Of a stretch of 64,000 bases of DNA, positions 22,227 through 61,705 are shown piece after piece. The position numbers were made by a program, and so were the translations under genes. The notes below the pieces were generated by a model. That model worked only from the letters and a program-made list of their open reading frames with translations. It searched no databases and had not been told where the DNA came from. The stretch is taken from IMG/VR virus record IMGVR_UViG_3300025357_000908, positions 32,001-96,000 of that record. One strand, given 5' to 3'. Origin of the DNA: a virus (Duplodnaviria; Caudoviricetes). The stretch's first letter is position 1; each line of letters starts with the position of its first letter.

Positions 22227-24050
22227 ATGCGCTATGTTTATTTCAAACATTTAAAAATTACTAATTTCCTGTCTGTAGGTAAAAGACCGGTAGTTGTAGA
22301 TTTTAAGCCTGGACTAAATATCATTACAGGTAAAAACTATGATAAAGCTGATAGAGCGAATGGCGTTGGAAAGTCCACTATTGCTGACGCAGTGCATTTT
22401 GCTTTGTATGGTAGCACTATACGCGATCTTAAAAAAGAAAACATAGTAAACGATCAAGCACCTGATCAGTTGTGTGAAGTCGAGCTCGAGCTTACATACC
22501 AGCAAGACGGTAAAAATAATGAATGCCGGATATTAAGAACTCTTAATCCTACTAAGTGCTTTTTCTTCGTTAATGGTGAAGATGTTACCAGATCTGGTGT
22601 ACCACAAACTACAGAGCTAATAGTTGATACCATTAAAACATCTTCTGAAATATTTCAAAATAGTGTTGTTATGTCAATTAACACCACGGTGCCATTTATG
22701 GCGCAGAAAAAGATAGAAAAACGTAAGTTTATCGAGGGTATTCTTGGTCTTGAAGTATTTAGTAATATGTTAAGCTTTGCACGTTTTGATTATAATGAAG
22801 CAAAACGTCTGCTCGATATTGAAAGTACAAAGATAGAAGAGACGAACAGGTCTTTAGCCGATGCGGTTAAACAAAAAGAAAATTACGAAGACACTAAAAA
22901 GAAAAGACTTGAAGTACTATTAACACGTCAGTCTAATAACGCTAAGGAATTAGCGAGTATAGATGAAAAGCTTAATAGTTTAGAATCTGTTGATATAGCA
23001 GCAGAAAAACAAATACAAGATAAATTATCTACTTTAAAAACAGCTGAAGGGGTATGTGACCGTAAAATTGCTTCTATTAATAAGATTATTACAGAAGCAG
23101 AAACACATATTAAGCTCAATAATGATCGCATTAAAAAACTTAAAAAAGTAGATAGCAAATGTCCACATTGCGGTAAAGACTTGGCAGAAGCAGTAAATGT
23201 ACAATATGAGAAAGATAAAGCCGAGTGCCAGTTAGAAATACAGAAATATACAGAAGTTATTAGTACACAAAAACCGCTCTTAGTGGATTCCCAAGATCAA
23301 TTAAATAAGGTTGAAAAAGCTATTGTTACAATACAAAAGAAGATAAACGATTTTAATATTCGTAAAAAAGAAGTAGAGAATATTAACAACAGAGTAAAGC
23401 AGCTTAATGAATGGCAAGCTTCGTTAGTTGTAGATATCGATCAACTTAATAAAGACTCTAATAATTTTCAAGATACTATAGATACTATTGTGACAAGGCA
23501 GAACGATATCAAGAAGCAAATCAGCTCATTACAAGAGAGAATAGATATTGTTGAATCCGCTAAATTTATCGTAGACGAAGAAGGTGTAAAATCTTATATT
23601 GTTAAGAAGATATTACAAGTACTAAATATGCGTTTAGCGCAATACTTACGTAGACTTGAAAGTAACAGTATTGTTACATTTAACGAGTTCTTCGAAGAGT
23701 CTATTACTAATGAAAGGGGTAGTCAATGTAGTTACTTTAACTTTTCTGGGGCTGAACGCAAAGCTATCGACCTTGCAATGTTATTTACGTTTCAGGATAT
23801 TCGTAGAGCGCAAGCAGATGTATGGTTAAATTTGAGTATGTTTGATGAGTTATTTGACTCCTCTTTAGATGAAAAAGGCATTGAATTAGTACTTGATATT
23901 CTCAAAGAGAGGGTAGATAATTACAATGAGTCGATTTATATTATTTCTCACCGTAAAGAAAGTAAAAAGTACTGTATTGGTGGGGAGATAGTATATCTTG
24001 AAAAGAAGAATGGTATAACAACAAGAACAACAACTTATGACATTTCCTAA
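22227..24050 (+). CDS. recombination ATPase gp46 (Rad50/SbcC-like)
   Basis: NGVGKST, CPHCG zinc hook in coiled coil, FSGAE, FDELFD, ISH. Confidence 0.95.
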   Translation: MRYVYFKHLKITNFLSVGKRPVVVDFKPGLNIITGKNYDKADRANGVGKSTIADAVHFALYGSTIRDLKKENIVNDQAPDQLCEVELELTYQQDGKNNECRILRTLNPTKCFFFVNGEDVTRSGVPQTTELIVDTIKTSSEIFQNSVVMSINTTVPFMAQKKIEKRKFIEGILGLEVFSNMLSFARFDYNEAKRLLDIESTKIEETNRSLADAVKQKENYEDTKKKRLEVLLTRQSNNAKELASIDEKLNSLESVDIAAEKQIQDKLSTLKTAEGVCDRKIASINKIITEAETHIKLNNDRIKKLKKVDSKCPHCGKDLAEAVNVQYEKDKAECQLEIQKYTEVISTQKPLLVDSQDQLNKVEKAIVTIQKKINDFNIRKKEVENINNRVKQLNEWQASLVVDIDQLNKDSNNFQDTIDTIVTRQNDIKKQISSLQERIDIVESAKFIVDEEGVKSYIVKKILQVLNMRLAQYLRRLESNSIVTFNEFFEESITNERGSQCSYFNFSGAERKAIDLAMLFTFQDIRRAQADVWLNLSMFDELFDSSLDEKGIELVLDILKERVDNYNESIYIISHRKESKKYCIGGEIVYLEKKNGITTRTTTYDIS

Positions 24051-25200
24051 TAACGGCATTATTGGTGCCCCTCAAATGCCTTTTGGTGCACCTGTTGTGG
24101 GTAGCCCATTAACACAGCCCACCCCACCGCCAGTTTCAGTTGTACCGGAAGGTATGAGACGTGCTATAAGTTATGCTGCAGACCACCAAGGGTGCGGGTT
24201 TTGGAGAATGCACTGGGCTGAGTCTATTATTAATGGTAATCAATTGGGTATCATTAATAATAATAATTTTATGATCTTACAGGAGAACTTTTATCAAGGT
24301 ATATCTTGTGTAAGAATACAAAGACAGGTTACACCCACACAGCTACAATTTGTAAGACTTTTAAGAGACATTTCTAATAGAACCAACAATTTTAAGATTT
24401 ATTACGAAATTGATGATGTTATTTTCCCAGAAGATATTCCACTTTATAACAAAGCACGTGAAGCATTTGTTGATCCTGCCATTGGAGCTACTGCAATAGA
24501 AATTATGAAGCTTTGTGATGGTATTACAACGCCTACAGATTACATGTCAAAGTACTACGAAGAAAGAACCGGCGTAAAAGGAATCACACTTCCTAACTAT
24601 ATGCCAAGGTTCTGGATGGATCGTTTTTACAACAAAAATAAGATTTCTGAAAATTACGAATACAATAAAAAACGACCTCGTATCGGTTATGTGGGTAGTC
24701 CAACTCATTTTAATATTGCTGGTACTCCTGGAGTGAAAGACGACTTCGGTGATATATTAGATGTTATTGTAAAAACTGTAAAGCAGTTTAAATGGGTATT
24801 AATGGGCGGTTGCCCTCAGGAGCTTGCTGAATACGTGCGTAGTGGAGATATAGAATATGTAGGCTGGACAAAGCTTTGGGACTACCCTACAGCTTTTAAC
24901 AATTTAAACGTTAATATGGTAATTGCACCACTACAAAACAATAAATTTAATTTAGCAAAAGCTAATATTAAACATATTGAAGCAGGTGCGTTAGGTATAC
25001 CATGTGTTTGTCAAAATTTAGAGCCGTATAAAGAAGCTCCTTTACGGTTCAATACTCCTGATGAAATGATAAGCGTGATTAAAAAAACATTAAGCGACCG
25101 TCGTACTTATTTAACTGAATCGGATATAGCACGTAAAAATGCATGTAAATATTGGTTAGAAGATCATATTGATGAGCATTGCAAACTATATTTCACTTGA
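24037..25200 (+). CDS. GT-B (GT4-like) glycosyltransferase
   Basis: GCGFWR, YEIDD, IGYVGSPTH, IAPLQNNKFNLAKANIKHIEAGALGIP. Confidence 0.75.
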   Translation: MTFPNNGIIGAPQMPFGAPVVGSPLTQPTPPPVSVVPEGMRRAISYAADHQGCGFWRMHWAESIINGNQLGIINNNNFMILQENFYQGISCVRIQRQVTPTQLQFVRLLRDISNRTNNFKIYYEIDDVIFPEDIPLYNKAREAFVDPAIGATAIEIMKLCDGITTPTDYMSKYYEERTGVKGITLPNYMPRFWMDRFYNKNKISENYEYNKKRPRIGYVGSPTHFNIAGTPGVKDDFGDILDVIVKTVKQFKWVLMGGCPQELAEYVRSGDIEYVGWTKLWDYPTAFNNLNVNMVIAPLQNNKFNLAKANIKHIEAGALGIPCVCQNLEPYKEAPLRFNTPDEMISVIKKTLSDRRTYLTESDIARKNACKYWLEDHIDEHCKLYFT

Positions 25201-38312: not shown

Positions 38313-38906
38313 ATGATTAATAATTTATTTCCTACACCTATATACGTTACAGATCTACCATCCAATGTAATAGAAAACGTACAGAGCGAGTTCGATACGG
38401 TATATAACGAGTACAAATTAAAAAACGAATTCGGAAAACAAGAAGGCTGGAAAGGCACTCATCTATTAAGCGACCCAACGTTTAAGAGTAGTTTCATAAA
38501 AGAATATAATTTATTATATTTTCAAAACGTGTTAAAAGATCATGTAACTGTTTATCTTAAGAGTATCAAATACGGTGGTAAGATAGACTATGATATACCT
38601 GGATCCTGGATGACATTATCCCGGAAAAATGAATATGCATATACCCACACGCATGGTTCGTATGATATATCGGGAGTGTATTATTACAAAACTAATAGTT
38701 CAGACGGTGATATATATTTTAGAACCCCTAACCCCTTACCGTATGCGACATATTGTTATAGCGGGTTAACTACTGATGTATACTACAAGCCAGTAGTTGG
38801 CAGGTTAATATTGTTCCCGTCATGGCTTAATCATGGCACTATACCTAACACTACCGATAATGAAAGGGTAAGTGTATCCTTTAATTTAAGATTTACTAAA
38901 AAATAA
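38313..38906 (+). CDS. 2OG-Fe(II) oxygenase (TIGR02466-like)
   Basis: LFPTPIY, SW, HTH, ISGVYY, LILFPSWLNH, RVSVSFN. Confidence 0.88.
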   Translation: MINNLFPTPIYVTDLPSNVIENVQSEFDTVYNEYKLKNEFGKQEGWKGTHLLSDPTFKSSFIKEYNLLYFQNVLKDHVTVYLKSIKYGGKIDYDIPGSWMTLSRKNEYAYTHTHGSYDISGVYYYKTNSSDGDIYFRTPNPLPYATYCYSGLTTDVYYKPVVGRLILFPSWLNHGTIPNTTDNERVSVSFNLRFTKK

Positions 38907-43712: not shown

Positions 43713-43743
43713 ACCCATCAATTTAAATATTGATGGGTTTTTT
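43713..43743 (+). terminator. intrinsic terminator between convergent genes
   Basis: ACCCATCAAT-ttaaat-ATTGATGGGT followed by a T-run. Confidence 0.8.
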
Positions 43744-44338
43744 ATGTCATACGGAAATTCATAGCAATACTAATTCTATTTTCATTGCTTTTATTTTTTT
43801 CTACCATGTGAGCAAGATTTGATCTAAAAACTATTACGTCCCCTTCTTGAGGTTGTATGTGGTATGTTTTGAAGTTAGGCATGACGAACTGCTCGGGTGG
43901 TGGTAGTGGGAACATATCTTTATCTGCTTCGTGACTTCTAAAAATAATTTTACCACAGTTTATAGGTATTTTAACATAGTACACTAAACTGAAATGATTA
44001 AGTGTATGTACATGGTATTCTTGAAAGTTACCAGGCTCTGCAATATTTATCCATGCCTCGCTACAAGCCGGTACCCTATTGTTTATACCATACTCTTTAG
44101 CAAATTCTTTTACCTCTATTTTACAATCATTAATTAAATTGTTAAAAAGCGGGTCATTGATTAAATTATACGAAGATAGTGTATTGTACGTGTCTCCAAT
44201 CCAATCAGAATTTAATTTATTGTTTTTCTTTAACTCGTATGCTTTAGCAATATAACGCTCGTTATTGTCTTTATGTTCTAACAAGTTTTTCTTGTAAACA
44301 AGTTCCGCAAACATTATACCAGTATTAGAGTTGCTCAT
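43742..44338 (-). CDS. 2OG-Fe(II) oxygenase (TIGR02466-like)
   Basis: AWIN, HVH, FSLVYY, VFRSNLAH, RISIAMN; own promoter TAGATT-N16-TATTAT (44372..44345). Confidence 0.85.
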   Translation of the reverse strand: MSNSNTGIMFAELVYKKNLLEHKDNNERYIAKAYELKKNNKLNSDWIGDTYNTLSSYNLINDPLFNNLINDCKIEVKEFAKEYGINNRVPACSEAWINIAEPGNFQEYHVHTLNHFSLVYYVKIPINCGKIIFRSHEADKDMFPLPPPEQFVMPNFKTYHIQPQEGDVIVFRSNLAHMVEKNKSNENRISIAMNFRMT

Positions 44339-44591: not shown

Positions 44592-45155
44592 ATGGAGCAT
44601 TATCACTATAAAGTACCGGGTTGGTTTTCGTACCCGTATTTGTATTCAAATATGGTTAATTTACACGCCGACGGAGCACACTTTGTAGAGGTAGGTTCGT
44701 GGATGGGTGCTTCTGCTGCCTATATGGGTGTGGAGATTATAAATTCTGGTAAAAAAATCGTCTTTGACTGTGTTGATGAGTGGTCTGATTATGTAGCGGA
44801 TGGATTATATATGAAAGAAGTACCTAAGAATCCTGGAGATTTTGTATACAATCTTTTTAAAGAAAATACAGCACCAGTGAAAAATTATATTAACCCGGTA
44901 AGACTTACTTCAGGGGAGGCAGCAGCTACATACAAGGATAACTCTTTAGATTTTGTTTTTATAGATGCCAACCATGTTTATGAAGCAGTAATAGATGATT
45001 TGAGTGCGTGGTTTAAAAAAGTTAAAATTGGTGGTTTTATTGGTGGTCACGATTATAAAGACGAAGATGTTAAAAAAGCAGTTGACCAGTTTTTTGGAAA
45101 AGATAATTATATCTTTGATTACAAAGAAAATTGTTGGTTACATCGCAAACAATGA
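44592..45155 (+). CDS. class I SAM-dependent methyltransferase (Methyltransf_24-like)
   Basis: VEVGSWMGAS, LDFVFIDANH.YE, GGFIGGHDY. Confidence 0.88.
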   Translation: MEHYHYKVPGWFSYPYLYSNMVNLHADGAHFVEVGSWMGASAAYMGVEIINSGKKIVFDCVDEWSDYVADGLYMKEVPKNPGDFVYNLFKENTAPVKNYINPVRLTSGEAAATYKDNSLDFVFIDANHVYEAVIDDLSAWFKKVKIGGFIGGHDYKDEDVKKAVDQFFGKDNYIFDYKENCWLHRKQ

Positions 45156-45527: not shown

Positions 45528-46202
45528 ATGAATTATACTGATATTATTAAACAAGCAGTTGAAAATGCTAATGCAGGTAAGAGCAAGCTCACTCAAAGTA
45601 TTTTAGACTTAGAAGGTATGTCCAGTAATAAGATAAGACACTTTCTTAATAATATTATTTCCTTACAGGAAGGTAAAGCTCGATATCTTGAAGTAGGTGT
45701 ATGGAAAGGTTCAACTACTATTTCTGCTCTTTATAAGAACAATCCAGAGTATCATACTGCGATAGATAACTTTGTTCAGTTTAATGGGCCTCGTTTAGAA
45801 TTTCAAAAGAATTGCAGAAAGTGGTTAGATTATGAAAATAGAGTTAATTTTGCTGATATAGGATGTTTTGATATAGATCCTGTACACGATCTTAATATTA
45901 CTAATATTAATACGTATCTTTACGATGGTGAACATAGCTACGACTCTCAGTACAAAGCTATTACTCATTATGAGGGTGCTTTAGCGGATGAGTTTATTTT
46001 AATTGTAGATGATTACAATTGGGATGAAGTACAAAGAGGCACACAAGATGGTATTAGAGATATGAAATTTAACGTACATTACCAAGTACATTTACCGGCT
46101 AACCCTGTAACAGTTCCAGGTCGCTGGGGTCCAGAAATATTTGGTGACAAGGCACTATGGTGGAATGGGTACTATGTTGCACATTGCACTAAAACAACTT
46201 AA
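45528..46202 (+). CDS. class I SAM-dependent methyltransferase
   Basis: YLEVGVWKGST, IDNF, YDGEH, IVDDYNW. Confidence 0.8.
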   Translation: MNYTDIIKQAVENANAGKSKLTQSILDLEGMSSNKIRHFLNNIISLQEGKARYLEVGVWKGSTTISALYKNNPEYHTAIDNFVQFNGPRLEFQKNCRKWLDYENRVNFADIGCFDIDPVHDLNITNINTYLYDGEHSYDSQYKAITHYEGALADEFILIVDDYNWDEVQRGTQDGIRDMKFNVHYQVHLPANPVTVPGRWGPEIFGDKALWWNGYYVAHCTKTT

Positions 46203-46519: not shown

Positions 46520-47203
46520 ATGCAACTCTCCGATTTAGTAGGTATATTTCCTAATGCTTTAAGTACGAGTATGTGCGACAGATTACTTGATTGTTACGAT
46601 AAAGCTATAGCAGGGGGTATTACACATGAAGGTACTATAGGAAAAACCGCAGCGGTTACTAACAGAAATATAAAGGATAGTTTAGATTTTGATTTTTATA
46701 AAGCCCGTAAAATAATCCCTGATGCAGAGTCTCTAACATTCACAATAAGGAACACACTCAATACTCACTTTAAGAAATATTTGCAAAGTCTTCCAAGACA
46801 AGATGAGTATGATAGCACTAAAACATTATATAATAGTGGGGGTTTTTGTTGGCCTATACTTCAAATACAAAGATATAAAAAAGGTGAAGGGCATTATAAT
46901 GCGTGGCATCATGAAGGGGGTATATTGGGAAATATGCCCGGGGCAGGAGAAAGACTGTTTGCTTTTTTAACATATTTAGACGATGTTGAAGAAGGTGGTG
47001 AAACCGAATTTTTATACACCAATCAAAAAATTAAACCAGAAAAAGGCAAAATGATAATCCATCCAGCTGGTTTTCCTTTTGTTCATAAAGGAAACCTTCC
47101 AGTGACTTCCGATAAAACAATCCTTATCACCTGGATATGTCAGATGCCCCCGCCCCCTGTGCTACATCCGCACGCAATGAAGCAATCTACTTATTTAGTT
47201 TAA
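46520..47203 (+). CDS. 2OG-Fe(II) oxygenase (prolyl-4-hydroxylase-like)
   Basis: IQRY, WHHE, YLDDVEEGGETEF, KPEKG, HKG, K.ILITW. Confidence 0.88.
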   Translation: MQLSDLVGIFPNALSTSMCDRLLDCYDKAIAGGITHEGTIGKTAAVTNRNIKDSLDFDFYKARKIIPDAESLTFTIRNTLNTHFKKYLQSLPRQDEYDSTKTLYNSGGFCWPILQIQRYKKGEGHYNAWHHEGGILGNMPGAGERLFAFLTYLDDVEEGGETEFLYTNQKIKPEKGKMIIHPAGFPFVHKGNLPVTSDKTILITWICQMPPPPVLHPHAMKQSTYLV

Positions 47204-48166: not shown

Positions 48167-49705
48167 ATGCATAAAGTAGTCATAGTTGGTGGTGGTACTG
48201 CTGGTATTATGTCAGCAGCAATAGTTAAATCAGCGTTTAAAGAAAACGTTGAAGTGACTTTAATTTATGACCATAAAAACCCGGGTATTGGAGTAGGGGA
48301 AAGCTTAACACCATCATTAAGAACGTTTATGCAACAAACAGGTCTCAAGGAAGGAGAGCTAATAAGAAATGTTAATGCTACAATTAAAATAGGTTTAAAA
48401 TTTAAAAACTGGTTAAATGACGGCAAGTATTACTATCATGGGTTTAGTCAAATTAGTGTAGCAGCGCATAATAATTTATCTGCAGCATACGCCATAGCTA
48501 ATAATATATATGACATGGATAATATGTTTCCGAATTATTATTTTGAAAACCATTTAGTCCCTAAACATACATCTTTTTTACCTAAACCCGCTGGAGCTAT
48601 AGAAAACCCCGTACAAGCGGACATATTAAACAGTACCACTTTACACTTAGATGCCACGTTACTGAGTTCTTTTTTAATAAGCAAATTTAAAAACAGTCTT
48701 AAAATTATCGATGATGTAGTTTTAGACGTAACCCTTAAAGATGAAAGCAATATTGCTGAGCTTATACTTAAAAATAACGGTAAAATTTCTGGAGATGTTT
48801 ATATCGATGCAACAGGGTTCAGCCGGGTGTTAATGAAACGACTAAAAAACAAATGGAACGATATGTCTGATTGGTTACCTATTGATAAATTTATACCTAA
48901 CCCTGTACCCACCACACACACTGAATTACAACCTTATACAACTGCTGAGGCAACTGATAACGGGTGGATACTGCAAGTACCTTTACAAAATAGATGGGGT
49001 ACTGGCTATTTATATAGTTCTCAGTTTACTTCTGATGATGAAGCGTATGAAAAATTTGATAAGTGGTCTAAGTTGACATACGGTAAAAATATAAATAGCA
49101 ACAAGTCACTGAGTTTTAAAAGTGGCTACTGGGAAGACCAGTGGGTAGGTAATTGTTTAGTGGTAGGCTTAGCCAGCGGTTTTGCAGAGCCATTAGAAGC
49201 AACAAACATACATCATACTATTAATCAGATTAGTCAGTTCTGCAAATATTATAACCCTCCAATGTTAGAATGGGATCGAATACCTTATAATAAAATTCAA
49301 AAAATTTCATATGAAAACATTTATCTTTATTTGAGATTCTGTTATACAACAGGAAGAACAGACTCTGAATTTTGGAAGTACATGACCAGTACCACACCTG
49401 TTATAGTAAAACATTTAGATGATAAATTAAAAAGCGGCTATTTAAACGTACTGGATAACGCAAGCGGTATTATGTTTAACGCTATTAATTTTACTTGTAT
49501 AGGGCATGGTCTAAATAAGTTTAATGCTGATAAAGTAAAAGATGCACTTATAAAAAACGGTCAATACACTCGATCTGAAAATTTATACAAAAAGCTTATG
49601 CGGGCAAGAGACCTGGAAAAGAATAACGTTATTACCAGTAATAATTACATTGATGCCATCCGCGGTAGACGTGGAATAGATGGCAAGTATTTTAAAATAC
49701 TATAG
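48167..49705 (+). CDS. tryptophan-halogenase-like flavoprotein
   Basis: GGGTAG, IGVGES, ATIKIG (catalytic Lys position), IDATGF, GWILQVPL, FAEPLEAT. Confidence 0.88.
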   Translation: MHKVVIVGGGTAGIMSAAIVKSAFKENVEVTLIYDHKNPGIGVGESLTPSLRTFMQQTGLKEGELIRNVNATIKIGLKFKNWLNDGKYYYHGFSQISVAAHNNLSAAYAIANNIYDMDNMFPNYYFENHLVPKHTSFLPKPAGAIENPVQADILNSTTLHLDATLLSSFLISKFKNSLKIIDDVVLDVTLKDESNIAELILKNNGKISGDVYIDATGFSRVLMKRLKNKWNDMSDWLPIDKFIPNPVPTTHTELQPYTTAEATDNGWILQVPLQNRWGTGYLYSSQFTSDDEAYEKFDKWSKLTYGKNINSNKSLSFKSGYWEDQWVGNCLVVGLASGFAEPLEATNIHHTINQISQFCKYYNPPMLEWDRIPYNKIQKISYENIYLYLRFCYTTGRTDSEFWKYMTSTTPVIVKHLDDKLKSGYLNVLDNASGIMFNAINFTCIGHGLNKFNADKVKDALIKNGQYTRSENLYKKLMRARDLEKNNVITSNNYIDAIRGRRGIDGKYFKIL

Positions 49706-50119: not shown

Positions 50120-51349
50120 ATGAAAATATGTGTATTGGGGGGAGGTACAGTCGGGTCAATGACACTGCTAACTATATTTAGATATATTCCGTTCATTGAT
50201 TTACGTCAATACCCTCAAGCTCATAAAGACGTTGACGTTACATGTATATACGACTCGAATATACCGCACTTACAGGTTGGAGAAAGTGCATCCAGTATTG
50301 TAAACAAAACACTCAGTACAGTGTTTAACACCCCTGTAACGGAATTAATAAAAGAATTTGATGCTACAATTAAAACGGGTACGAGATATTTTTGGACTAA
50401 AGCTAATGGAAACGTATTTGATGTACAGGTATTATTAGATGATAAAACACCAGCAAAGAGCTTACATATCGATAGTAGTGAGTTCTCTAAATTTGTTATA
50501 AACAAACTAAAAACATGCAAATCAAATTTTACTACCATAGATGATACAATAACCGATGTAACGCAAGATAGTAAATCAGTAAAGTTAAAAGGTAATAAAG
50601 GGCTATATGAATTTGATTTTTTAATTGATTGTAGAGGTACACCGTCAAAAGAAGATTTAGCTAATAAGGACATTTATACCCCACCCAAATTCGAATATGT
50701 AAATTCAGTTATACTGTATCCAGAGTATAAAACTTATAACGAAAGCTATACATCAGTTCATGTACATGAAAATGGCTGGATGTTTGGTGTACCTTTAAGA
50801 AAACGAAAGGGATGGGGGTTTTTGTATAATAATAATTTTTTAACTACCGAAGAAGCGATTAAACAATTTTCTACAATAAAAAATATTGATGCGTCTACTC
50901 TTAAAAGAATGACATGGAAGCCTTATTATAGAAACAAAGCATTAGATAATAAAATCCTGTATTTAGGTAGTAAATTATACTTCTTTGACCCGCACGGGGC
51001 ATTACCATTACATTTTTATAATTCTATTGTTTCGTTCGTACTTAGAGGAGTACTTTTAAACGTACAAGACTATGATGAATTTGTTAAAAGTTCAAATACA
51101 TGGTATTTAAAAAATTTACAGTCAATTCAGGATTTAATCTCTATAAATTACTGTGGACCTAATGATATTAAAAGTGATTTTTGGGACTACGCTAAATCAA
51201 GTTCAACTAAATTTTTAAAAGAATCTACACATTTTAATAATGCTATTAAAATGCATAAAAAAGGGTTATTAGCTGGTTACTGGGCATACCCTAAGGAATA
51301 TTTTTATAGTATTATTAACGGATATAAAATAGATTTAAGTAATTTTTAA
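50120..51349 (+). CDS. divergent tryptophan-halogenase-like flavoprotein
   Basis: GGGTVG, VGES, ATIKTG, IDCRG, GWMFGVPL; TATAAATA at 50102-50109. Confidence 0.75.
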   Translation: MKICVLGGGTVGSMTLLTIFRYIPFIDLRQYPQAHKDVDVTCIYDSNIPHLQVGESASSIVNKTLSTVFNTPVTELIKEFDATIKTGTRYFWTKANGNVFDVQVLLDDKTPAKSLHIDSSEFSKFVINKLKTCKSNFTTIDDTITDVTQDSKSVKLKGNKGLYEFDFLIDCRGTPSKEDLANKDIYTPPKFEYVNSVILYPEYKTYNESYTSVHVHENGWMFGVPLRKRKGWGFLYNNNFLTTEEAIKQFSTIKNIDASTLKRMTWKPYYRNKALDNKILYLGSKLYFFDPHGALPLHFYNSIVSFVLRGVLLNVQDYDEFVKSSNTWYLKNLQSIQDLISINYCGPNDIKSDFWDYAKSSSTKFLKESTHFNNAIKMHKKGLLAGYWAYPKEYFYSIINGYKIDLSNF

Positions 51350-53170: not shown

Positions 53171-53890
53171 ATGAAAGCTGAAACAAGTACATCTTCCGAA
53201 CAACTCGCTATTAATGCTCCTTTTAAAGGAGAAGTACTCGGGTTTTTTCCTATACCGGTAGCTAAATGCAATCTCAGCAAATATTCTGTGTTCAATACAG
53301 CCGCTACACAGCTTAAATCCACGAAACTTAAAACACATAATCAAATTTCTTCAAAAAAATTAGCGCATGCGTTTAGTCAAGAAAACTATCTTTTAGAAAA
53401 AGAAGAATTTTTTAATATTAAAAATATTATTACTGAAAAGTGTACGCAGTATTTAAATCAAGTGCTAAATTTCGAAGGCATGGCAAAGGTCACTCAAAGC
53501 TGGGTGAATTGTAATGCTCCGGGTGATATAACCCACACCCACAATCATCCTAATTCAGTTGTTTCAGGTGTACTTTACCTGGAAACTGATAGTATCAACG
53601 GGAATATAACATTTTATAAACATGCTCAAGACAATGGTGCTGGCCATTCCTATTCTTTACTACCATCTATAATAGATAAACCTATTAACCCGTCTTTTTT
53701 TAAAGCTTTTGCTACAACACAACACACAGTTAATGTAGTTCCAGGGGATCTTGTCTTGTTTCCTTCTTATCTTTTACATTCAGTGCCTGTTAACAATAGC
53801 GCTACAGACAGATGGAGTTTAGCATTCAACTCAATACCCACCCCACGTCTGGGAGCAAGTGAACATTTAACAGAATTAAAGCTAAACTAA
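53171..53890 (+). CDS. 2OG-Fe(II) oxygenase (TIGR02466-like)
   Basis: QSWVN, HNHPNSVVSGVLY, LFPSYLLH, RWSLAFN. Confidence 0.9.
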   Translation: MKAETSTSSEQLAINAPFKGEVLGFFPIPVAKCNLSKYSVFNTAATQLKSTKLKTHNQISSKKLAHAFSQENYLLEKEEFFNIKNIITEKCTQYLNQVLNFEGMAKVTQSWVNCNAPGDITHTHNHPNSVVSGVLYLETDSINGNITFYKHAQDNGAGHSYSLLPSIIDKPINPSFFKAFATTQHTVNVVPGDLVLFPSYLLHSVPVNNSATDRWSLAFNSIPTPRLGASEHLTELKLN

Positions 53891-54424: not shown

Positions 54425-54616
54425 ATGTCTGGCAAAGGCAGTAAACCACGTCCTTTCTCGGTTTCTCAAGATACATACGGGGAAAATTGGGATAATATTT
54501 TTAAAAAAAAGCAACCTGACCATGATAAGCACATGGCTGCTACCGATTGGTCTCAAATGTTAGGAGAGCTACCCGAAGATTACAAAGAAAACAAGAAAAA
54601 ACGCTCAAAAAACTAA
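54425..54616 (+). CDS. small hypothetical phage protein
   Basis: GKGSKPRPFSV...YGENWDNIFKKK, a pattern common in T4-like phages. Confidence 0.65.
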   Translation: MSGKGSKPRPFSVSQDTYGENWDNIFKKKQPDHDKHMAATDWSQMLGELPEDYKENKKKRSKN

Positions 54617-55458
54617 GCAGGAAGTATGAAACCGGACGGGTCATAAACAGCTGGGCACTTAACCCACCCGTCACAGTATACATCTTTAGGGTTTAAGTCA
54701 AATAGTGCGTCTGGCCCAAACCAGACGCCTGGTATAATTACCTTTTTTTCGGGATAATTTGAAAGATAAGCACCCCACCACGTAAAAGTTGAATTAGAAA
54801 TAACGAAATTTTGACATAAAGACAGGAACCAGAGTGCTTTATGTCGTTCGTAGTTTATAAATACAGTATTAGGTAATTTAATATTTTCTCTACACCACTG
54901 TAGGTCGTCGCTAACTACAAAAATAGTATCTACTTTAGGTAACATTTCTGCTGCTTTGTGTATATAGCTTGCAGAAATAACTGGATGACGCCGTGGAAAG
55001 TTTAAAAAATCACCCCTTCTTACATTAATTACGGCATTTGTTCCGTTTTTTAATTGCGGGTAGTCTTGATATGCCTGGTTAATAAACTCTTCTGTAGGGC
55101 CAAATAGCTCTTTTACCTCTTTTGCATAATCTTTAAAATATTTTTCACTTTCAAAATAACCTCTAAATACGGTTGGTTTAGAAGGGTGCGGAGTGTACTG
55201 GTTATAATGATATGTTGCGTGTATAGTGTGTACATTTTCACCAGGCTCAGGGGATTTATCCAATAAAAACTGTAGTTTTCTATGTACAGTATCATAATAG
55301 TCACTCACTGAAGTATCATGGCGGGGTAATACTAACTGTCTTTTATGTCTTAACGATTGTGCATATACATTAGCTATTTGAAACATTTGATTGCCTAAAC
55401 GACCAACCATATGACAGGTAACAAAATTGGGTTCAAATTGAGAAGAATATGTACTCAT
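54613..55458 (-). CDS. GT11 alpha-1,2-fucosyltransferase-like
   Basis: GRLGNQMFQ, GYFES, NVRRGDF, SDDLQWC, NSTFTWWGAYL. Confidence 0.9.
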   Translation of the reverse strand: MSTYSSQFEPNFVTCHMVGRLGNQMFQIANVYAQSLRHKRQLVLPRHDTSVSDYYDTVHRKLQFLLDKSPEPGENVHTIHATYHYNQYTPHPSKPTVFRGYFESEKYFKDYAKEVKELFGPTEEFINQAYQDYPQLKNGTNAVINVRRGDFLNFPRRHPVISASYIHKAAEMLPKVDTIFVVSDDLQWCRENIKLPNTVFINYERHKALWFLSLCQNFVISNSTFTWWGAYLSNYPEKKVIIPGVWFGPDALFDLNPKDVYCDGWVKCPAVYDPSGFILPA

Positions 55459-56141
55459 TATACTTTAACAATATTTAATCTCTTATAAGACTCTTCCCAG
55501 TGAGTAATACCGGGAGCTCTACCATAAGCATCTAAATCACTTGCACCATCTCTCTGTGCAACAGCTAATGGATACACAAAATACTTCTGTATATCTTTTT
55601 GTTGGCCTAACCACCCGTCAAGTACTGCATCCTTAGCTGGAGCATATCTTAGTAGTTTTTTAAAGGCTTTTTTATTATAACCAACAGCATGTGTAGTCAA
55701 AACAGTGTTAGCTTTAAGTAGGTTTTCTGAAACTTGCTGTACAGGGTTATCAAAAACATACCCTCCAAAATAAATCATATCCCAGTCCGGAAAATTTTGT
55801 AGTTGATCTAAAGCCTTTTCTACGATCTGTAAACCAGTCTCCGGTCCCTTATTATAAAACAGTATATCGTCTTCAAAGACTAATATACGCTCAAAGCCGC
55901 TTTGATCCATTTTTAAAAATAAATTATATAGTGACTCGCTAAACGCATAAAAAGATTTAACGAATTCTGGCTCATGAGCAGGAAGTACATAATTTTTTTC
56001 TTTAACGTCTATACATTTATGTCTTTCAAAAAAACCTTCGAGTCCAATCGCTTTAATATCTTTTTCAAGCTGGATTCTACGATCAGTTCGTCGATCGAGA
56101 TTCATATAATATCCTTTTTGAAAAAATTCGTTAATTTTCAT
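55458..56141 (-). CDS. GT25-like glycosyltransferase
   Basis: YMNLDRRTDRR, LVFEDD, WDMIYFG, TTHAVGY. Confidence 0.8.
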   Translation of the reverse strand: MKINEFFQKGYYMNLDRRTDRRIQLEKDIKAIGLEGFFERHKCIDVKEKNYVLPAHEPEFVKSFYAFSESLYNLFLKMDQSGFERILVFEDDILFYNKGPETGLQIVEKALDQLQNFPDWDMIYFGGYVFDNPVQQVSENLLKANTVLTTHAVGYNKKAFKKLLRYAPAKDAVLDGWLGQQKDIQKYFVYPLAVAQRDGASDLDAYGRAPGITHWEESYKRLNIVKV

Positions 56142-56149
56142 TTATATTA

Positions 56150-57331
56150 TCAAGCTGTTATAGTTTGAATAAAGTCTTCCCACATTTGCCCGACTTTATG
56201 TGCATTAAATTTGTTTAGTATATAATCTTTACCTCTATTTTGTAAATCTGCTTTTACTTCTGGGTTGCTTTCAAGGTAATTAACTGCGTCAGCAATTTTT
56301 GCTGTATTGTCTCTAAATATACCCTGTTCATCTTTAGTTAAAGATTCTTTTTGTATTTTTTCTGGGTCTGCACCGTTTGGAAAATCAATCCATTTGCAGT
56401 AACCATCAAAGTTTTCAGGTAATGCTCCTAAAGGATACGTAATTGGTATAGCACCTAATGCAATTGCTTCAGCTACTACACAAGAAAATGTATCTTTATG
56501 AACATCTTGGTAAGGAGTGTACAGCGGGTAGATAAAATACTCACTTTCAGCTATGTGCGTAAATAATGTTTTTTTATCTACCCCCTCATGCTTATAAAAA
56601 AACGAATCCTCGTGAGGGTGAGTACAAAGCAAGTAATCAAAAGCGTGTAACTCAGCATCAGGCCAATTCAATTCTCTTAATGTTTGAACCGCTACGTTAC
56701 CACCTCTTGGCCATGCAGCATGATAAACTACCTTATGCTTCTTTTTTACTGGTTTAATATCTAAAACCTCGTTAATAATATCGTCCATTACTGGGTTAGG
56801 TATTAGAGTACTAATAGTGTTATCATAGCGACTTTTTGTAGCTTGAATAGTATGTTGATTCATACTTTTTTCCCAATTAGATATATTAACAAACCCCAGT
56901 CTGAGCTTATTGTTTTTTGCGTATGATATTAACTCGTCAATGCCGTATATCCACTGCATATGGCACCAGTATATTAAAGCTTTACTGACTGTTATCGGTA
57001 GTTTAACATAATCATGAAACCAAAGACTACTAATAACTATATCAAAATCTTTATTTGCAATATTAGTAAAATCAATGTCTGTGTAATACACACCTCTAAC
57101 CTTTTTACCAGCATTAAAATACAATCCCTTCTCGGCATATGCTTTTTCAAGTTGCGGCTCAAGTTTATCTGATGTAACCACCACTTCATGTCCGAGCAAT
57201 GCCAGTTGTTCTGCAACAATTATAGTACTACCATCAGTACCAGAACCACCACCATTACCGTACCGTAACGTGTCTCCGTCTAAATAATTACTTCTACGAC
57301 TGTTACCTATTAATATAAATGCTATTCTCAT
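56150..57331 (-). CDS. GT-B (GT4-like) glycosyltransferase
   Basis: GGSGT, LGHEVVV, IPNP, DTFSCVVAEAIALGAIPIT...GALPE. Confidence 0.8.
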   Translation of the reverse strand: MRIAFILIGNSRRSNYLDGDTLRYGNGGGSGTDGSTIIVAEQLALLGHEVVVTSDKLEPQLEKAYAEKGLYFNAGKKVRGVYYTDIDFTNIANKDFDIVISSLWFHDYVKLPITVSKALIYWCHMQWIYGIDELISYAKNNKLRLGFVNISNWEKSMNQHTIQATKSRYDNTISTLIPNPVMDDIINEVLDIKPVKKKHKVVYHAAWPRGGNVAVQTLRELNWPDAELHAFDYLLCTHPHEDSFFYKHEGVDKKTLFTHIAESEYFIYPLYTPYQDVHKDTFSCVVAEAIALGAIPITYPLGALPENFDGYCKWIDFPNGADPEKIQKESLTKDEQGIFRDNTAKIADAVNYLESNPEVKADLQNRGKDYILNKFNAHKVGQMWEDFIQTITA

Positions 57332-57334
57332 AGT

Positions 57335-58606
57335 TTAACTATTTAAGTTCTTTTCGTATCTTTCGCTCCACCCTTTATTTTTCCAGTGCGCGTACATTAC
57401 TATTTTATATGGTTTGTCAATACTACGAAAAGTAGCGTTATGTGTGGTTATTTTAAAACTAATATAATCAGGATCCTTTTCTGTATTAAAATCTTTACGG
57501 TATAAACTACCACCACTCTGTGTCTCAATACCAAATGTTATAAACTCGAGTGTATCGTTTTCTGGAGCTTGTTTTTTAAAGAATTCAGCATCCCAACTAC
57601 ATGTAAATCTGTGCTCTCTGGATATAAACTGATTATCATAATCAATTGGATTTGGTGGTTCTTGTACCTTTAAAGTGTAGTCTTGAATACGACAGTTTTT
57701 AAAATCAAACCCACCGTATATTTCATACTCCCGCAATGTACGTTCTTTACCTAAACCATACACTCCCATATCAATACCATGTTCTTCCTGTCCGAACAAC
57801 TGACGAGTCTTATTACGCGCGTATATATCTCTTTCTCCTGAAGTCTTGCCGGTATATTTTTCTGTACCGTGATCATCCCAGTGCTTTACTCTATAGTTAC
57901 GTGTGTATTCATGCCAAATGTATTGACGGTACGGGCTAAAGATGTCATACCCGTTTGTCCATGCTCTCACACTCATTGTAGTTTCCTCTGTATAACCACC
58001 GAAATATATGTCCGGATCATATGGTACTTCGGCAATAAATTTACCAGGTGCTAAAAAGAAATGACCACTAATGGTACGCGCACGTATAACTTTATTACGT
58101 TCTTTATAATCTTGTATATAGTATGGCATGCTCATTAACAGTTTATCCGAACTAAACTCATACTGAGACATTAAACATGGCCCCATATCTGTTATAGGTT
58201 TTTCCGGGTCAAACGGTGTACAATAAGTAGAAATTATAGGTTTTTTAGAAACCGCTAACGCTTGCTCATAGTCTTCTAACAACATTTTATCCCAATCTTG
58301 AGCAAACCGGTGATGTGAGTCTAATTGTAGAGTGAGTTCTTCTCCATCATATAGAGAGTTAGTTAAATTACGTGCCCACCCTAACCCCTCACTTTCAGTG
58401 TATTTCTTTTTAATAACTCTATAATTTGGTTTACCATCATAGTAGTTAGGGTCTTCATCTGGACCGTACTGCCAGCAAATACCAAATGAAAATTGTTCCG
58501 GGTTAGCAGCTTTTGCTAACATATCGTTAATTGTTGGTATTAGTTGCGGGTCTCTATAAGAAGCAAATTGTACAAAAATACGAGGTTTCTTGGTTTTCTT
58601 AGCCAT
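57335..58606 (-). CDS. GT60/Gnt1-like polypeptide (hydroxyproline) GlcNAc-transferase
   Basis: IFVQFASYRD, GWAR, LQLDSHHRF..DWD, VPYDP, EE...SVRAWTNGYDIFSP, WHEY. Confidence 0.85.
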   Translation of the reverse strand: MAKKTKKPRIFVQFASYRDPQLIPTINDMLAKAANPEQFSFGICWQYGPDEDPNYYDGKPNYRVIKKKYTESEGLGWARNLTNSLYDGEELTLQLDSHHRFAQDWDKMLLEDYEQALAVSKKPIISTYCTPFDPEKPITDMGPCLMSQYEFSSDKLLMSMPYYIQDYKERNKVIRARTISGHFFLAPGKFIAEVPYDPDIYFGGYTEETTMSVRAWTNGYDIFSPYRQYIWHEYTRNYRVKHWDDHGTEKYTGKTSGERDIYARNKTRQLFGQEEHGIDMGVYGLGKERTLREYEIYGGFDFKNCRIQDYTLKVQEPPNPIDYDNQFISREHRFTCSWDAEFFKKQAPENDTLEFITFGIETQSGGSLYRKDFNTEKDPDYISFKITTHNATFRSIDKPYKIVMYAHWKNKGWSERYEKNLNS

Positions 58607-58614
58607 AAAAGTAA

Positions 58615-59727
58615 TTACGAGTTGTTTACAGTATTACCACTGTTTTCTTTTTCAAAATCATGTAAAGCTGCTGCTATAACCTGGTGCATATCATAGTATT
58701 TGTATTCTGCCAATCTACCACCAAATAATACATTAGGTAATGCTTTAGTAAGCTCTTTGTATTGATTATATATTTTAGTATTTTTTTCATTATTAATCGG
58801 ATAATAAGGCGTTAGATCTCGTTTCCATTCTTCTGGATACTCTCTTGTAATTAATGTATGGGGTACATTTACCCAATCAAAATGCTTATGTTCAATAATA
58901 CGAGTGTAAGGTATATCTGCAGCTGTGTAATTAATTAATGCATTGCCTTGATAGTCCTTAACTGGAACTACTTCATGCTCAAATCTTGTAGTTCTATAAT
59001 CTAAGTCTCCAAACTGGTAACTAAAGTATGCATCAATCGGACCAGTATATAGTACTTTCTTAGCTATTTTATCCCAGTTATCTTTATCCGCTAAATAATC
59101 GGTATTAAGTTTTACCTCGATACCGGTGAGCATTTTTTCTATAATTTGTGTATAACCACCTATTGGTATACCCTGGTACGTATCAAAGTAATAATTATCG
59201 TCAAAATTAGTTCTTATTGGAATACGTTTAATAATAAACGTTGGTAACTCTTTAGGATCGGTTTTCCATTGCTTTTGAGTATAACCCTTAATAAACGTCT
59301 CGTAAAGCTCTGTACCTATTTCATTGAGACACCACTCTTCCAGATTTTGCGGGTTATCTATTTTTACTTTACTTGCAAGGAGTTTTTTAATTGCTTCTTC
59401 TGGTGTTTTTACACCCCACAGTTGATACAAAGTTAACAAATTAATTGGAAACGAATAAAGCTTATCTTTATAACTTACCTTTGGTCTATTAACAAAGCTA
59501 TTAAATGTAGCAAACTGATTAACATAGTCCCAGATCCTTTTATTAGATGTGTGAAATATATGCGGACCATATTCATGTACATTAATACCATTAACATTTC
59601 TTGTATAAATGTTACCACCTATATGTTCTTTCTTCTCAAGTACTAAGCATTTTTTACCTGCTTTAGTAGCTTCATGTGCAAAGACTGAACCGTATAAGCC
59701 AGATCCAACTATAAGATAATCGTACAT
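58615..59727 (-). CDS. glf: UDP-galactopyranose mutase
   Basis: GSGLYG, HIGGN, HEYGPHIFHT, GYTQKQW, YQGIP, PYYP, GRLAEYKYYDM. Confidence 0.95.
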   Translation of the reverse strand: MYDYLIVGSGLYGSVFAHEATKAGKKCLVLEKKEHIGGNIYTRNVNGINVHEYGPHIFHTSNKRIWDYVNQFATFNSFVNRPKVSYKDKLYSFPINLLTLYQLWGVKTPEEAIKKLLASKVKIDNPQNLEEWCLNEIGTELYETFIKGYTQKQWKTDPKELPTFIIKRIPIRTNFDDNYYFDTYQGIPIGGYTQIIEKMLTGIEVKLNTDYLADKDNWDKIAKKVLYTGPIDAYFSYQFGDLDYRTTRFEHEVVPVKDYQGNALINYTAADIPYTRIIEHKHFDWVNVPHTLITREYPEEWKRDLTPYYPINNEKNTKIYNQYKELTKALPNVLFGGRLAEYKYYDMHQVIAAALHDFEKENSGNTVNNS

Positions 59728-59764: not shown

Positions 59765-61705
59765 TTATGGTCCGTTAATCGGTGTAGATATTGATCCAGC
59801 AGAATTATGATGTGTTGTTGGGCTGCTTGCTGCTACAGCTGCATTAGGTCCATTTACAGCTGCTGCTGCATTATTTAACGTTGCAGGATCTGCTACTAAT
59901 TGAAGTGGTAAGTTCTTAAAGTAATGAGTATGTGCTTGATTGATTACCAGCGTAACCGTATCACCACTATAAATTATACCACCGCCTGGCTTGCTAATTT
60001 GAGCACCTGTATCTGTAATTTTAGTAGACTCAGTAACTTGAAATTCTACAGGTGCAGTAACATGTTGTAAGTATGTTTCACCTTTAAGATATTGACCACC
60101 ACCAATAACTACATTTTGACTTACACCCAAATTATCGTCAATAACTACTTGTTGACGGTTACGCGTTCTTAAAGTCATTATATTAGCTATAACAGACAAA
60201 TTAGTACCACCATCAATATTGGTATCATCTGAAGAAGCAATATTGACCTGTTTACCAGCTAATGCCATTATAGTACCACCCATATTAATAGGGCCGGTTG
60301 TCTTGATGTCTATACCACCTGAACCTACCAATAAATTGTAACGATTACCAGCAGTTACTGTATAATTACCACCAGGCATATCATCAATATGTGTATACTC
60401 AATAGCAGGTATTGTAGTAGTAACTTTACCGTTATTGTTATTATATTGCGTTATTGTTTTTGCAGTACCATTATATCTTGTACTTGCAAATTGATTGAAT
60501 ACTAAACCTACATTGACGAGTTTGTGCTTGGTAATTGTTTCAATATAATTTCCACCAAAACCGAGTGCAGCTTCAGCTTCTGCTAACGCATTTGCTTGAG
60601 TAGCTATTGTACCTGCAAGTTCGTTCTTAGTAGCTGTACTTTCTGGTAAAGCTAAAAGATTAGCTATAGAAGTATAATAACTAACCCACGTATTCATTGC
60701 AGCGGTATTCAAGGAACCAGTTTTAACATAATAGTTACCTTGTATGATATTATCAAAATCTCTACCCACCCACAAATTATTGTGTCCTTTTACTGTTTCA
60801 AATTTATCTCTAAGTGTTAACAGCTGTAAATTCTCAGGAGTAAACAAAGAGTTGTATTTGTTATTAAATTCTAAAAACCCTCCAGCAAAGTGTGTAACTT
60901 TAAATGATTCTCTATCTGTGGTGTTAATGATTTCTATTGCTGCACCGCGCTGATTAACAACCATTTTATTACGGTATGTTTCAGTGTTAACGTCGTTTGC
61001 ATTTCTGACATCTTTACCCACACTTTCAAACGTTTGAGGGTAGTCTTGAAATGTACCATCATCGGAACCAAATATACTTGCAAAATCATCTTGACCTAAA
61101 GAAGTTCCCATATACACTGGGTAAGTTGGAACCCCATCCCTAAAAAATACCCAAACATGAGCACCTACATTAGGTATGGCAAATACACCTTTAGCTGCAT
61201 TTGAGTACGTCGAAGGTCTGTATTGAGTACCAGTAGGGTTTATATTATTGGTACCGTTAGCTACAGTATCAGTAAAAGCGTCTGTTAATTTAGTAGCATA
61301 CTTTTCATAAACAAACCCAGGCTTTTCACCCATACGCTCGTTGTTTAAATTGAACTGAGTATAAGAGTTTGAAAAATTTGTACCAGATAAACTATAAGGA
61401 TACGTAGCATCCGAAACGGTAGCTTTGTCTGCGTATGCATTATATGTACCAGATGAACTTTCCCCTGCAATAGGCCCACAATACTCTGCCCAAGGTAAAC
61501 TATCTCTTAAGTCATTAATAATTAAACTTAAGTCTGAATTTATATTGATACCTGGAAACTTAAAATTTCGATCCTGTTGTGTGATTTCCCATTTACTATA
61601 TACGCCAGCATTAGCATGCGGTACCCACACTTTTATACGCCCACGATGTTCCGGGTCGTTATTAGCTATTACTATACCAAGATAAATTGACGGAAAAGTT
61701 TTCAT
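59765..61705 (-). CDS. baseplate central spike (gp5/VgrG-like), no lysozyme domain
   Basis: OB-fold YLGIVIANNDPEHRGRIKV...GVFAIPNVGAHVWVFF; C-terminal beta-helix repeats and HTH motif. Confidence 0.82.
   Translation of the reverse strand: MKTFPSIYLGIVIANNDPEHRGRIKVWVPHANAGVYSKWEITQQDRNFKFPGININSDLSLIINDLRDSLPWAEYCGPIAGESSSGTYNAYADKATVSDATYPYSLSGTNFSNSYTQFNLNNERMGEKPGFVYEKYATKLTDAFTDTVANGTNNINPTGTQYRPSTYSNAAKGVFAIPNVGAHVWVFFRDGVPTYPVYMGTSLGQDDFASIFGSDDGTFQDYPQTFESVGKDVRNANDVNTETYRNKMVVNQRGAAIEIINTTDRESFKVTHFAGGFLEFNNKYNSLFTPENLQLLTLRDKFETVKGHNNLWVGRDFDNIIQGNYYVKTGSLNTAAMNTWVSYYTSIANLLALPESTATKNELAGTIATQANALAEAEAALGFGGNYIETITKHKLVNVGLVFNQFASTRYNGTAKTITQYNNNNGKVTTTIPAIEYTHIDDMPGGNYTVTAGNRYNLLVGSGGIDIKTTGPINMGGTIMALAGKQVNIASSDDTNIDGGTNLSVIANIMTLRTRNRQQVVIDDNLGVSQNVVIGGGQYLKGETYLQHVTAPVEFQVTESTKITDTGAQISKPGGGIIYSGDTVTLVINQAHTHYFKNLPLQLVADPATLNNAAAAVNGPNAAVAASSPTTHHNSAGSISTPINGP

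Follow-up and report, generated by a model that had tools for sequence, protein, structure and literature searches.

The cassette described here is carried by an uncultured T4-like phage, represented by a 123-kb contig that corresponds to ~58% of the genome. The window, the whole stretch of DNA that was analysed, spans 64,000 nucleotides of this contig. According to ORF calls, six genes follow each other on the minus strand, beginning with a gp5-like hub and ending with GT11:

59765..61705, minus strand: gp5/VgrG-like baseplate hub/spike, 646 aa (PF04717 OB domain, E 8e-10)
58615..59727, minus strand: Glf, UDP-galactopyranose mutase (PF03275, 1e-80; TIGR00031)
57335..58606, minus strand: GT60-family GT-A glycosyltransferase, 423 aa (PF11397, 194 bits)
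56150..57331, minus strand: GT-B, GT4-like retaining glycosyltransferase, 393 aa (AF2 fold)
55458..56141, minus strand: GT25-like GT-A glycosyltransferase, 227 aa (PF01755, 22.6 bits, below the cut-off of 24)
54613..55458, minus strand: GT11 fucosyltransferase, 281 aa, final gene (PF01531, 6e-26)

The intergenic spacing from the hub to GT11 is 37, 8, 3, 8, and -1 nt. A preliminary description had placed a co-directional run of glf, GT60, GT4-like, GT25-like, and GT11 genes after the gp5-like spike, and the run lies exactly there. The TAATTA reported before GT60 does end 5 nt upstream of the ATG, with the qualification that its TAA is the stop codon of glf. The glf ATG is itself preceded, 8 nt upstream, by a TATATAATAATA element. 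Transmembrane segments are predicted in none of the five cassette proteins (0/5), which suggests soluble enzymes.

Homologues of the gp5-like hub are found in 17 viral loci (65-86% identity). Within this gp5-anchored set, a GT60-family gene directly follows gp5 in 16 of 16 readable relatives. The extension enzymes differ among these relatives and include a carbamoyltransferase, an HtrL/YibB-like protein, a GT2, and a methyltransferase. The slot after gp5 behaves as a swappable glycan island, with a conserved GT60 and exchangeable extension enzymes.

The PF11397 score of the GT60 protein compares with a cut-off of 21, and the match covers profile positions 2-45 and 100-351. Its AF2 model (pLDDT 92.7) comprises a catalytic domain (approximately residues 1-320) and a beta-rich C-terminal domain (approximately 329-419); Pfam detects no lectin domain in the protein. 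The best 50 listed PDB matches of the model are all GT27 polypeptide GalNAc-transferases (Foldseek, E ~1e-11). Residues D95-x-H97 are invariant and H231 is near-invariant across 32 GT60 homologues, and the LDSH of GT60 aligns to the LDCH of GalNAc-T4 in a profile alignment. Characterised GT60 enzymes are polypeptide alpha-GlcNAc-transferases and kin of GT27 (PMC8724618). We propose GT60 as the initiating enzyme for polypeptide O-HexNAc.

The protist GT60 enzymes (the mucin-type initiators of Dictyostelium and T. cruzi; Gnt1) have PF11397, the GT-A fold, the D-x-H motif, and the kinship with GT27 in common with the phage enzyme, which is soluble like Gnt1. In contrast to them, the phage enzyme is encoded by a bacterial virus with a tail, has ~100 additional residues that form a C-terminal beta domain, and is accompanied by a GT4-like partner but no obligatory prolyl hydroxylase. 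The animal mucin-type GT27 enzymes are its closest structural match and also exhibit the D-x-H metal motif. However, phage GT60 reaches ~15% sequence identity with them, has no ricin-type lectin domain detectable by sequence, and is cytoplasmic whereas GT27 enzymes are located in the Golgi.

Glf scores 392 bits against the TIGR00031 equivalog (cut-off 304), has an FAD-binding N-terminus (PF13450, 2e-22), and is the predicted supplier of UDP-galactofuranose. Because the GT4-like protein has no Pfam match, its GT4 assignment comes entirely from the fold: the AF2 model (pLDDT 92.4) is a two-Rossmann GT-B fold, and its best PDB neighbours are sucrose-phosphate synthase, MshA, PimA, BshA, PglA, and also WaaG (Foldseek E 1e-12 to 1e-9 for the latter five). 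The gene lies directly 3' of GT60 in 26 of the 28 loci in which that DNA is present; the GT4-like enzyme is a constant partner of this GT60 subtype. PF01755 is matched by 18/22 homologues of the GT25-like protein (best 2e-10), the family profile matches the procollagen galactosyltransferase COLGALT1 (2e-10) and Mimivirus R655 (2e-8), and an E-D-D motif is invariant in the family, which has one to three paralogues per relative. GT11 exceeds the PF01531 cut-off (91.8 vs 23.9 bits), matches phrog_2644 (2e-52), and by family precedent would form an alpha-1,2 linkage.

Glf, GT4, GT25, and GT11 also belong to the families usually encoded in O-antigen and LOS loci. One alternative is that the cassette remodels a glycan of the host envelope (LPS O-antigen or core, capsule, S-layer glycan) in the infected cell and leaves the virion unglycosylated; such remodelling would serve to block superinfection or to keep progeny from sticking to debris. 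In line with this, similar gene sets of cyanophages have been interpreted as cell-wall modification (PMC12801897), some source records title GT60 homologues 'glycosyltransferase involved in cell wall biosynthesis', and the alternative cassettes of relatives contain LPS-type genes of the HtrL/YibB-like kind. However, the run is free of genes for membrane proteins and has neither a priming phosphoglycosyltransferase nor a flippase or polymerase, and the best 50 listed structural neighbours of GT60 are without exception polypeptide transferases. Envelope remodelling also leaves unexplained the repeated tight linkage of GT60 to Thr-Pro repeat structural proteins described below, and we consider it unlikely.

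ORFs with dense (TP)n repeats occur up to 10 kb on either side of GT60 in 11/30 viral loci and in 0/80 control loci (Fisher p 1.3e-7), where the viral loci are partly dependent and the near-duplicates L020/L021, L030/L032, and L010/L012 leave ~8 independent positives. In a second comparison, viral records were picked solely by the DNA pattern (ACNCCN)x7 and controls by an arbitrary 14-mer (3.3 vs 3.0 Mb). PF11397 is present in 12 of the 70 (TP)7-encoding records and in 1 of the 78 controls (p 7e-4), and in 8 of the 12 GT60-bearing records a TP-rich ORF is found zero to three genes from GT60. With the exception of L280 (65%), the GT60s of those TP-linked records are 26-39% identical to GT60 of this phage. 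Two of the TP-rich neighbours match families of the phage particle: one a virion structural protein (phrog_14478, 4e-211), the other a protein of minor-tail/tail-fibre-like type. Judged by annotation names, none of the annotated neighbours of the homologue in Xanthomonas phage XacN1 is a structural protein. A shared preference for variable fibre regions could also bring Thr-Pro linkers and accessory glycan genes together, with no functional interaction between them.

GT27 enzymes favour Thr near Pro. The linked candidate acceptors of phage GT60 are Thr/Pro-rich and resemble the mucin-like substrates of protists. By genomic comparison, Thr-Pro repeat proteins emerge as the candidate acceptors of the GT60 cassette.

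Neither this phage nor its closest kin carries a TP-rich ORF at a distance of 10 kb or less from the cassette. Several Pro-rich phage proteins had been reported in the window, a count that is not borne out: the highest Pro content of any window ORF is 9.1%, and only two window ORFs contain a stretch in which 9 of 30 residues are Pro. Outside the window, contig bases 6-1304 encode a protein of 432 aa with 34% Pro, which features PTVTPTVT and TPTPTP tracts, two InlB-B-repeat domains, and a poly-Pro tail of ~130 residues that is almost pure proline. Its gene is the last in a baseplate-wedge/tail-fibre operon, preceded on the same strand by genes for a baseplate wedge subunit, a tail-fibre-like protein, and a collagen-like tail fibre, and lies ~88 kb from the cassette on a contig that covers ~58% of the genome. 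This protein is the likeliest acceptor in this phage.

On this computational evidence, we read the five genes as a soluble, cytoplasmic, phage-encoded cassette for mucin-type O-glycosylation of the phage's own structural proteins, with a probability of roughly 0.55. GT60 resembles initiators of mucin-type chains, and the phage therefore probably sugar-coats its own Thr/Pro-rich fibre proteins. The general idea of an O-glycan on the phage's own virion proteins, already put forward in the preliminary description, is strengthened by the GT60-TP linkage across unrelated phages and by the GT27-like fold, while the proposed link to hydroxyproline is not supported (see below). The following scheme, with its acceptor, its sugars, its sequence of steps, and a glycan on the virion, is inferred from gene identities, folds, linkage, and synteny. 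GT60 would move a HexNAc, GlcNAc by family precedent, from a UDP-sugar to Thr and possibly Ser hydroxyls in the Thr-Pro repeat tracts of fibre-like structural proteins, which would be modified during their synthesis in the infected cell. The GT4-like partner would add the next sugar and the GT25-like enzyme a beta-linked hexose, and UDP-galactofuranose from Glf would be spent in one of the steps. GT11 might finally add a fucose cap.

T4 glucosyltransferases glycosylate phage DNA and thereby evade restriction. The enzymes of the cassette might likewise glycosylate phage DNA, and the phage already hypermodifies its DNA (QueC, FolE, QueF, and a dGTP diphosphohydrolase are present) and carries a second set of glycosyltransferases among its replication genes. 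Yet the cassette adjoins the baseplate hub and not the replication genes, the 123 kb of the incomplete contig contain no thymidylate-synthase-like hydroxymethylase, and neither a Galf/Fuc glycan built in five steps nor a polypeptide-type fold like that of GT27 fits the known DNA transferases. A role in DNA glycosylation is thus very improbable.

Five 2OG-Fe(II) oxygenases, one of them P4H-like, had been reported in the window. All five are found, one of them weakly:

46520..47203, plus strand: P4H-like 2OG-Fe(II) oxygenase, 227 aa (PF13640, 38 bits)
43742-44338: 2OG oxygenase (PF13759)
53171-53890: 2OG oxygenase (PF13759)
38313-38906: 2OG oxygenase (PF13759)
1636-2277: 2OG oxygenase, weak (sub-threshold)

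In a Skp1-like route, the P4H-like oxygenase would hydroxylate Pro-rich phage proteins, GT60 would prime Hyp like Gnt1 on Skp1, and Gal or Galf and Fuc would extend the chain. Gnt1, a characterised GT60 enzyme, indeed modifies Hyp (PMC8724618), the best PDB matches of the P4H-like oxygenase are prolyl 4-hydroxylases (led by PBCV-1 5c5t, E 5e-6), and the poly-Pro tail of the 432-aa protein would offer a substrate. Moreover, L282, which belongs to another phage lineage, has a P4H-like gene flanked on one side by a short GT60 and on the other by a TP-rich tail-fibre-like protein of 719 aa, and one further record has six PF13640 paralogues near GT60.

However, the gene of the P4H-like oxygenase is located ~10 kb from the cassette on the opposite strand, and its putative metal motif aligns as H-x-E, not H-x-D. 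The co-occurrence of GT60 with P4H-like genes across phages, suggested earlier as a check, is low: PF13640 is present in just 5 of 41 GT60-bearing viral records. In four of these five the GT60 is of a distant, short subtype; in the fifth, G162, it is of a long subtype (64% identical), and the oxygenases lie at least 50 kb from it. The P4H-like gene is absent at the syntenic site of the close relative L004, which keeps the whole cassette. Neither PF13640 nor PF13759 is found in G052, a complete 257-kb genome in which GT60, the GT4-like gene, one other gene, and Glf stand in this order beside a TP-rich ORF. We class the P4H-like gene as accessory; it is no constant companion of the cassette.

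The Skp1 pathway (PhyA, Gnt1, PgtA, AgtA or Glt1/Gat1) has a GT60 start, a hexose, an alpha-1,2-fucose, and soluble cytoplasmic enzymes, as predicted for the cassette. Its second and third sugars are added by PgtA, a bifunctional GT2/GT74 enzyme (PMC8724618). In contrast, the fucosyltransferase of the cassette is a GT11 (PF01531), no fused GT2/GT74 protein is part of the run, and no GT74-type fucosyltransferase was seen; Glf with Galf and the GT4 and GT25 enzymes lack a counterpart in the Skp1 pathway, in which, unlike here, a prolyl hydroxylase is a conserved partner of GT60. A PF01466 (Skp1) search of the incomplete 123-kb contig gave no match, and control genomes were equally blank. The Skp1-like route proposed for the cassette is not supported, and we consider it improbable. 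Since the P4H-like gene and the poly-Pro protein are both present, hydroxyproline may still apply in this phage. Both chemistries might even run here, with the P4H-like enzyme hydroxylating the poly-Pro tail and the TP tracts and the GT60-led cassette building Galf/Fuc glycans on both Hyp and Thr, although we regard this as a long shot. If so, a bacterial virus would make an extensin-like hydroxyproline glycoprotein, and the trio of P4H-like gene, GT60, and TP fibre in L282 would be a second, independent case.

Mycobacteriophages offer a precedent for phages that glycosylate their own structural proteins, with virion glycans reported on the C-termini of capsid and tail-tube subunits (Freeman et al. 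2023 via PMC12619734). Phage-encoded glycosyltransferases are reported to act there, as we propose here; the acceptors proposed here differ in being extended Thr-Pro tracts in fibre-like proteins, with a GT60 as the initiator.

If this reading is correct, many environmental tailed phages would run eukaryote-style mucin O-glycosylation inside bacteria and decorate the Thr-Pro stalks of their own appendages, which would add a glycan layer to the particles. Such a layer could alter protease resistance, stickiness, host recognition, and antigenicity. The reading would likewise account for the fixed post-hub slot with its constant GT60 and swapped extension enzymes, akin to the variation of bacterial O-antigen loci. 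Furthermore, the cassette would offer soluble enzymes suited to the bacterial cytoplasm for the production of mucin-type glycopeptides. A search for this GT60 type returned 6,656 clusters; in the atlas, the clusters nearest to GT60 are 77-96% viral.

The cassette proposed in the preliminary description is present as drawn: five minus-strand open reading frames (ORFs) occupy window positions 54613-59727 exactly and follow a 646-aa gp5/VgrG OB-domain protein. The intergenic gaps range from -1 to 37 nt. Glf is identified as UDP-galactopyranose mutase at equivalog level, the second gene belongs to PF11397 (CAZy family GT60; 194 bits) and the fifth is a GT11. The third gene is without a Pfam match, and its AF2 model (pLDDT 92.4) adopts a GT-B fold closest to GT4 enzymes. 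For the fourth, GT25-like gene (window 55458-56141), the single-protein match is marginal and the family-level assignment is clear. The best solved relatives of its family profile are human procollagen galactosyltransferase 1 (2e-10), an enzyme that glycosylates protein, and Mimivirus R655 (2e-8). NCBIfam holds no name for any of the four transferases. The reported TAATTA is present, ending 5 nt upstream of the GT60 ATG, and the motif includes the glf stop codon. Copies of the T4 late-promoter motif TATAAATA show no enrichment, and none lies upstream of the cassette; sigma-70-like and terminator-like matches occur at chance level.

The AF2 model of the GT60 protein (pLDDT 92.7) has only GT27 polypeptide GalNAc-transferases among its best 50 listed structural neighbors in the PDB. 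GT27 enzymes are the initiators of mucin-type O-glycosylation. Residues D95 and H97 are invariant in 32 GT60 homologs with identities down to 22%. In PDB sequence searches, GT60 alone returned nothing and the family profile gave only a marginal match to GalNAc-T4, in which the D-S-H of GT60 is aligned to the D-x-H metal site; a Gnt1 structure was not among the results. A review by the family-defining groups describes GT60 as a family of polypeptide alpha-GlcNAc-transferases with kinship to GT27; in protists, GT60 members start mucin-type chains on Ser/Thr, and the cytoplasmic Skp1 enzyme is among them (PMC8724618). Metagenomes are rich in GT60 (6,656 clusters), and the atlas clusters closest to the phage protein are 77-96% viral. 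A tblastn search with GT60 found matches (~33% identity) only in four jumbo phages, which infect Xanthomonas or Stenotrophomonas. In one of them, Xanthomonas phage XacN1, GT60 is paired with a carbamoyltransferase neighbor, and no named structural protein appears among its neighbors as judged by annotated names. A phage-encoded GT60 is not described in the literature that was searched for GT60 with phage and for PF11397.

At least seven independent contexts place an ORF with dense TPTPTP tracts immediately next to the cassette. In a forward test, a Thr-Pro (TP) tract ORF lies within 10 kb on either side of GT60 in 11/30 loci, as compared to 0/80 control loci drawn by an arbitrary 14-mer (p 1.3e-7; ~8 positives after removal of near-duplicates). 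The reverse test selected records solely by the DNA pattern (ACNCCN)x7 and found PF11397 in 12/70, whereas one of 78 controls of similar total size carries it (p 7e-4). A TP-rich ORF is located 0-3 genes away from GT60 in eight of these 12 positives; the eight GT60s are 26-39% identical to the window GT60, except for that of L280 (65%), and their partner genes differ. Of two TP-rich neighbors with a family match, one falls into a family of virion structural proteins (4e-211) and the other into minor-tail/tail-fiber families. Remodeling of the host envelope would agree with the later enzyme families of the cassette and with customary annotation, but it leaves the TP linkage unexplained and would have to proceed from a cassette without a priming, flipping or membrane component (membrane segments in 0/5 proteins), and we consider it unlikely.

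The cassette probably glycosylates TP proteins of the phage itself, and a candidate acceptor is encoded outside the window:

L284:6-1304 (contig bases 6-1304), minus strand: candidate acceptor of 432 aa, 34% Pro, with PTVTPTVT and TPTPTP tracts

This protein contains two divergent InlB B-repeat domains, and its C-terminal ~130 residues are almost all proline, with terminal repeats that include PPPPNPPPPPTPPG and PPPAPPP. It is the last product of a co-directional run that encodes a baseplate wedge subunit, a 785-aa protein, a tail-fiber-like protein and a collagen-like tail fiber. Its N-terminus (F-x-F-N-P) resembles those of collagen-like fibers (Y-N-P-I/V-G), a sequence likeness that hints at a shared virion attachment site. 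The several Pro-rich proteins previously placed in the window were not recovered, as the highest proline content among window ORFs is 9.1%. Gly-X-Ser collagen-like fibers were considered as a general GT60 partner and rejected: the pattern occurs in only 4/41 GT60 records and is regarded as lineage baggage because it is confined to close kin of the window phage. A 381-aa protein with TPPQQGGGNPAPAA-type repeats (8.9% Pro, 11.5% Gly) is encoded in a structural region at L286:11972-13117 (contig 107972-109117, minus strand), and is possibly another modified protein.

The preliminary description further linked the cassette to hydroxyproline. All five 2OG oxygenases named for the window are present, one of them weakly supported, and the product of 46520-47203 (PF13640) indeed has prolyl 4-hydroxylases as its best PDB matches. 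The expected co-occurrence of GT60 with P4H-like genes does not hold, as PF13640 is found in only five of 41 GT60 records. In four of these records GT60 is of a distant, short subtype. The remaining one, G162, encodes a long GT60 subtype (64% identical), and its oxygenases are at least 50 kb away. In the close relative L004 (GT60 83% identical, same synteny), the P4H-like gene is missing between conserved neighbors. The complete 257-kb genome G052, in which GT60, GT4-like, methyltransferase and Glf genes adjoin a TP-rich ORF, encodes neither PF13640 nor PF13759. Judged by gene content, prolyl hydroxylase is not a required partner of the cassette, which would make Thr (or Ser) the simpler acceptor. 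Hydroxyproline is possible as an add-on in the window phage because both an oxygenase and a poly-Pro protein are encoded. The trio of oxygenase, GT60 and TP protein does exist in another viral record (G051, 15,028 bp in total):

L282:5777-11521, minus strand: epimerase, short GT60 (316 aa), radical-SAM/SPASM protein, P4H-like oxygenase (PF13640, 73 bits), DUF6171 protein and TP-rich protein (719 aa, tail-fiber-like)

This run is a compact candidate for hydroxyproline (or other) modification combined with glycosylation of a phage fiber.

GT60s with 52-83% identity to the window protein were found in 30 viral loci. A GT4-like gene directly follows GT60 in 26 of the 28 loci in which the DNA continues, and the usual companions of this pair are GT25-like (one to three copies), GT11 and Glf genes. 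Many of the backbones have nothing else in common with the window phage. Hence, the cassette is a mobile unit with a core of GT60 and GT4-like genes. With the gp5-like protein as anchor (65-86% identity), 17 loci were compared; 16 are readable beyond gp5, and a GT60-family gene follows immediately in all 16. The slot holds the window cassette type in 7/16 and another GT60 subtype in 9/16, which is 32-36% identical to the window GT60, often occurs as tandem duplicates and precedes carbamoyltransferase, HtrL/YibB-like, GT2 and methyltransferase genes. Examples from relatives of the window phage, each with one or two GT60 genes, are the following alternative cassettes in the gp5 slot:

L295:11028-18404
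L300:11090-17738
L298:12226-17758

As GT60 follows gp5 throughout and the downstream genes differ, the slot and the initiator family are constant, and what is exchanged is the extension chemistry; comparative gene order marks the gp5 slot as a swap hot-spot for glycan cassettes. Baseplate proximity is not essential: the sister-lineage loci L010 and L012 carry the cassette between genes for replication and for the head, where it adjoins a TP-rich ORF.

The contig (122,736 bp; GC ~34%), of which the window covers bases 32001-96000, has a T4-like gene content comprising gp32, UvsX/RecA, a gp41-like helicase, gp46/47 and a B-family polymerase, and also encodes a major head protein, a portal protein and a baseplate wedge subunit. 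The polymerase is only ~30% identical at best to those of cultured phages, and the cassette has no megablast match among cultured phages. Glycosylation of phage DNA by the cassette enzymes is highly improbable: the GT60 fold is unsuited, and the thymidylate-synthase-like hydroxymethylase family was not found in the contig, whose estimated completeness is ~58%. Apart from the cassette, a second glycosyltransferase set lies among gp47, gp46 and the polymerase:

Window 17959-22182 and 24037-25200: GT2-like, second GT11, GT10 fucosyltransferase, GT2/GT7C-like and GT1-like genes
Window 20334-20648: dATP/dGTP diphosphohydrolase gene in the middle of the set

Genes of two further families were noted:

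Window 48167-49705, window 50120-51349 and L284:12407-14071: three tryptophan-halogenase-family genes (PF04820, 2e-86 and 1e-27; phrog_2928, 4e-112)
Window 44592-45155 and 45528-46202: two Methyltransf_24 (TylF-like) genes just upstream of the P4H-like oxygenase

The two Methyltransf_24 proteins may be sugar O-methyltransferases.
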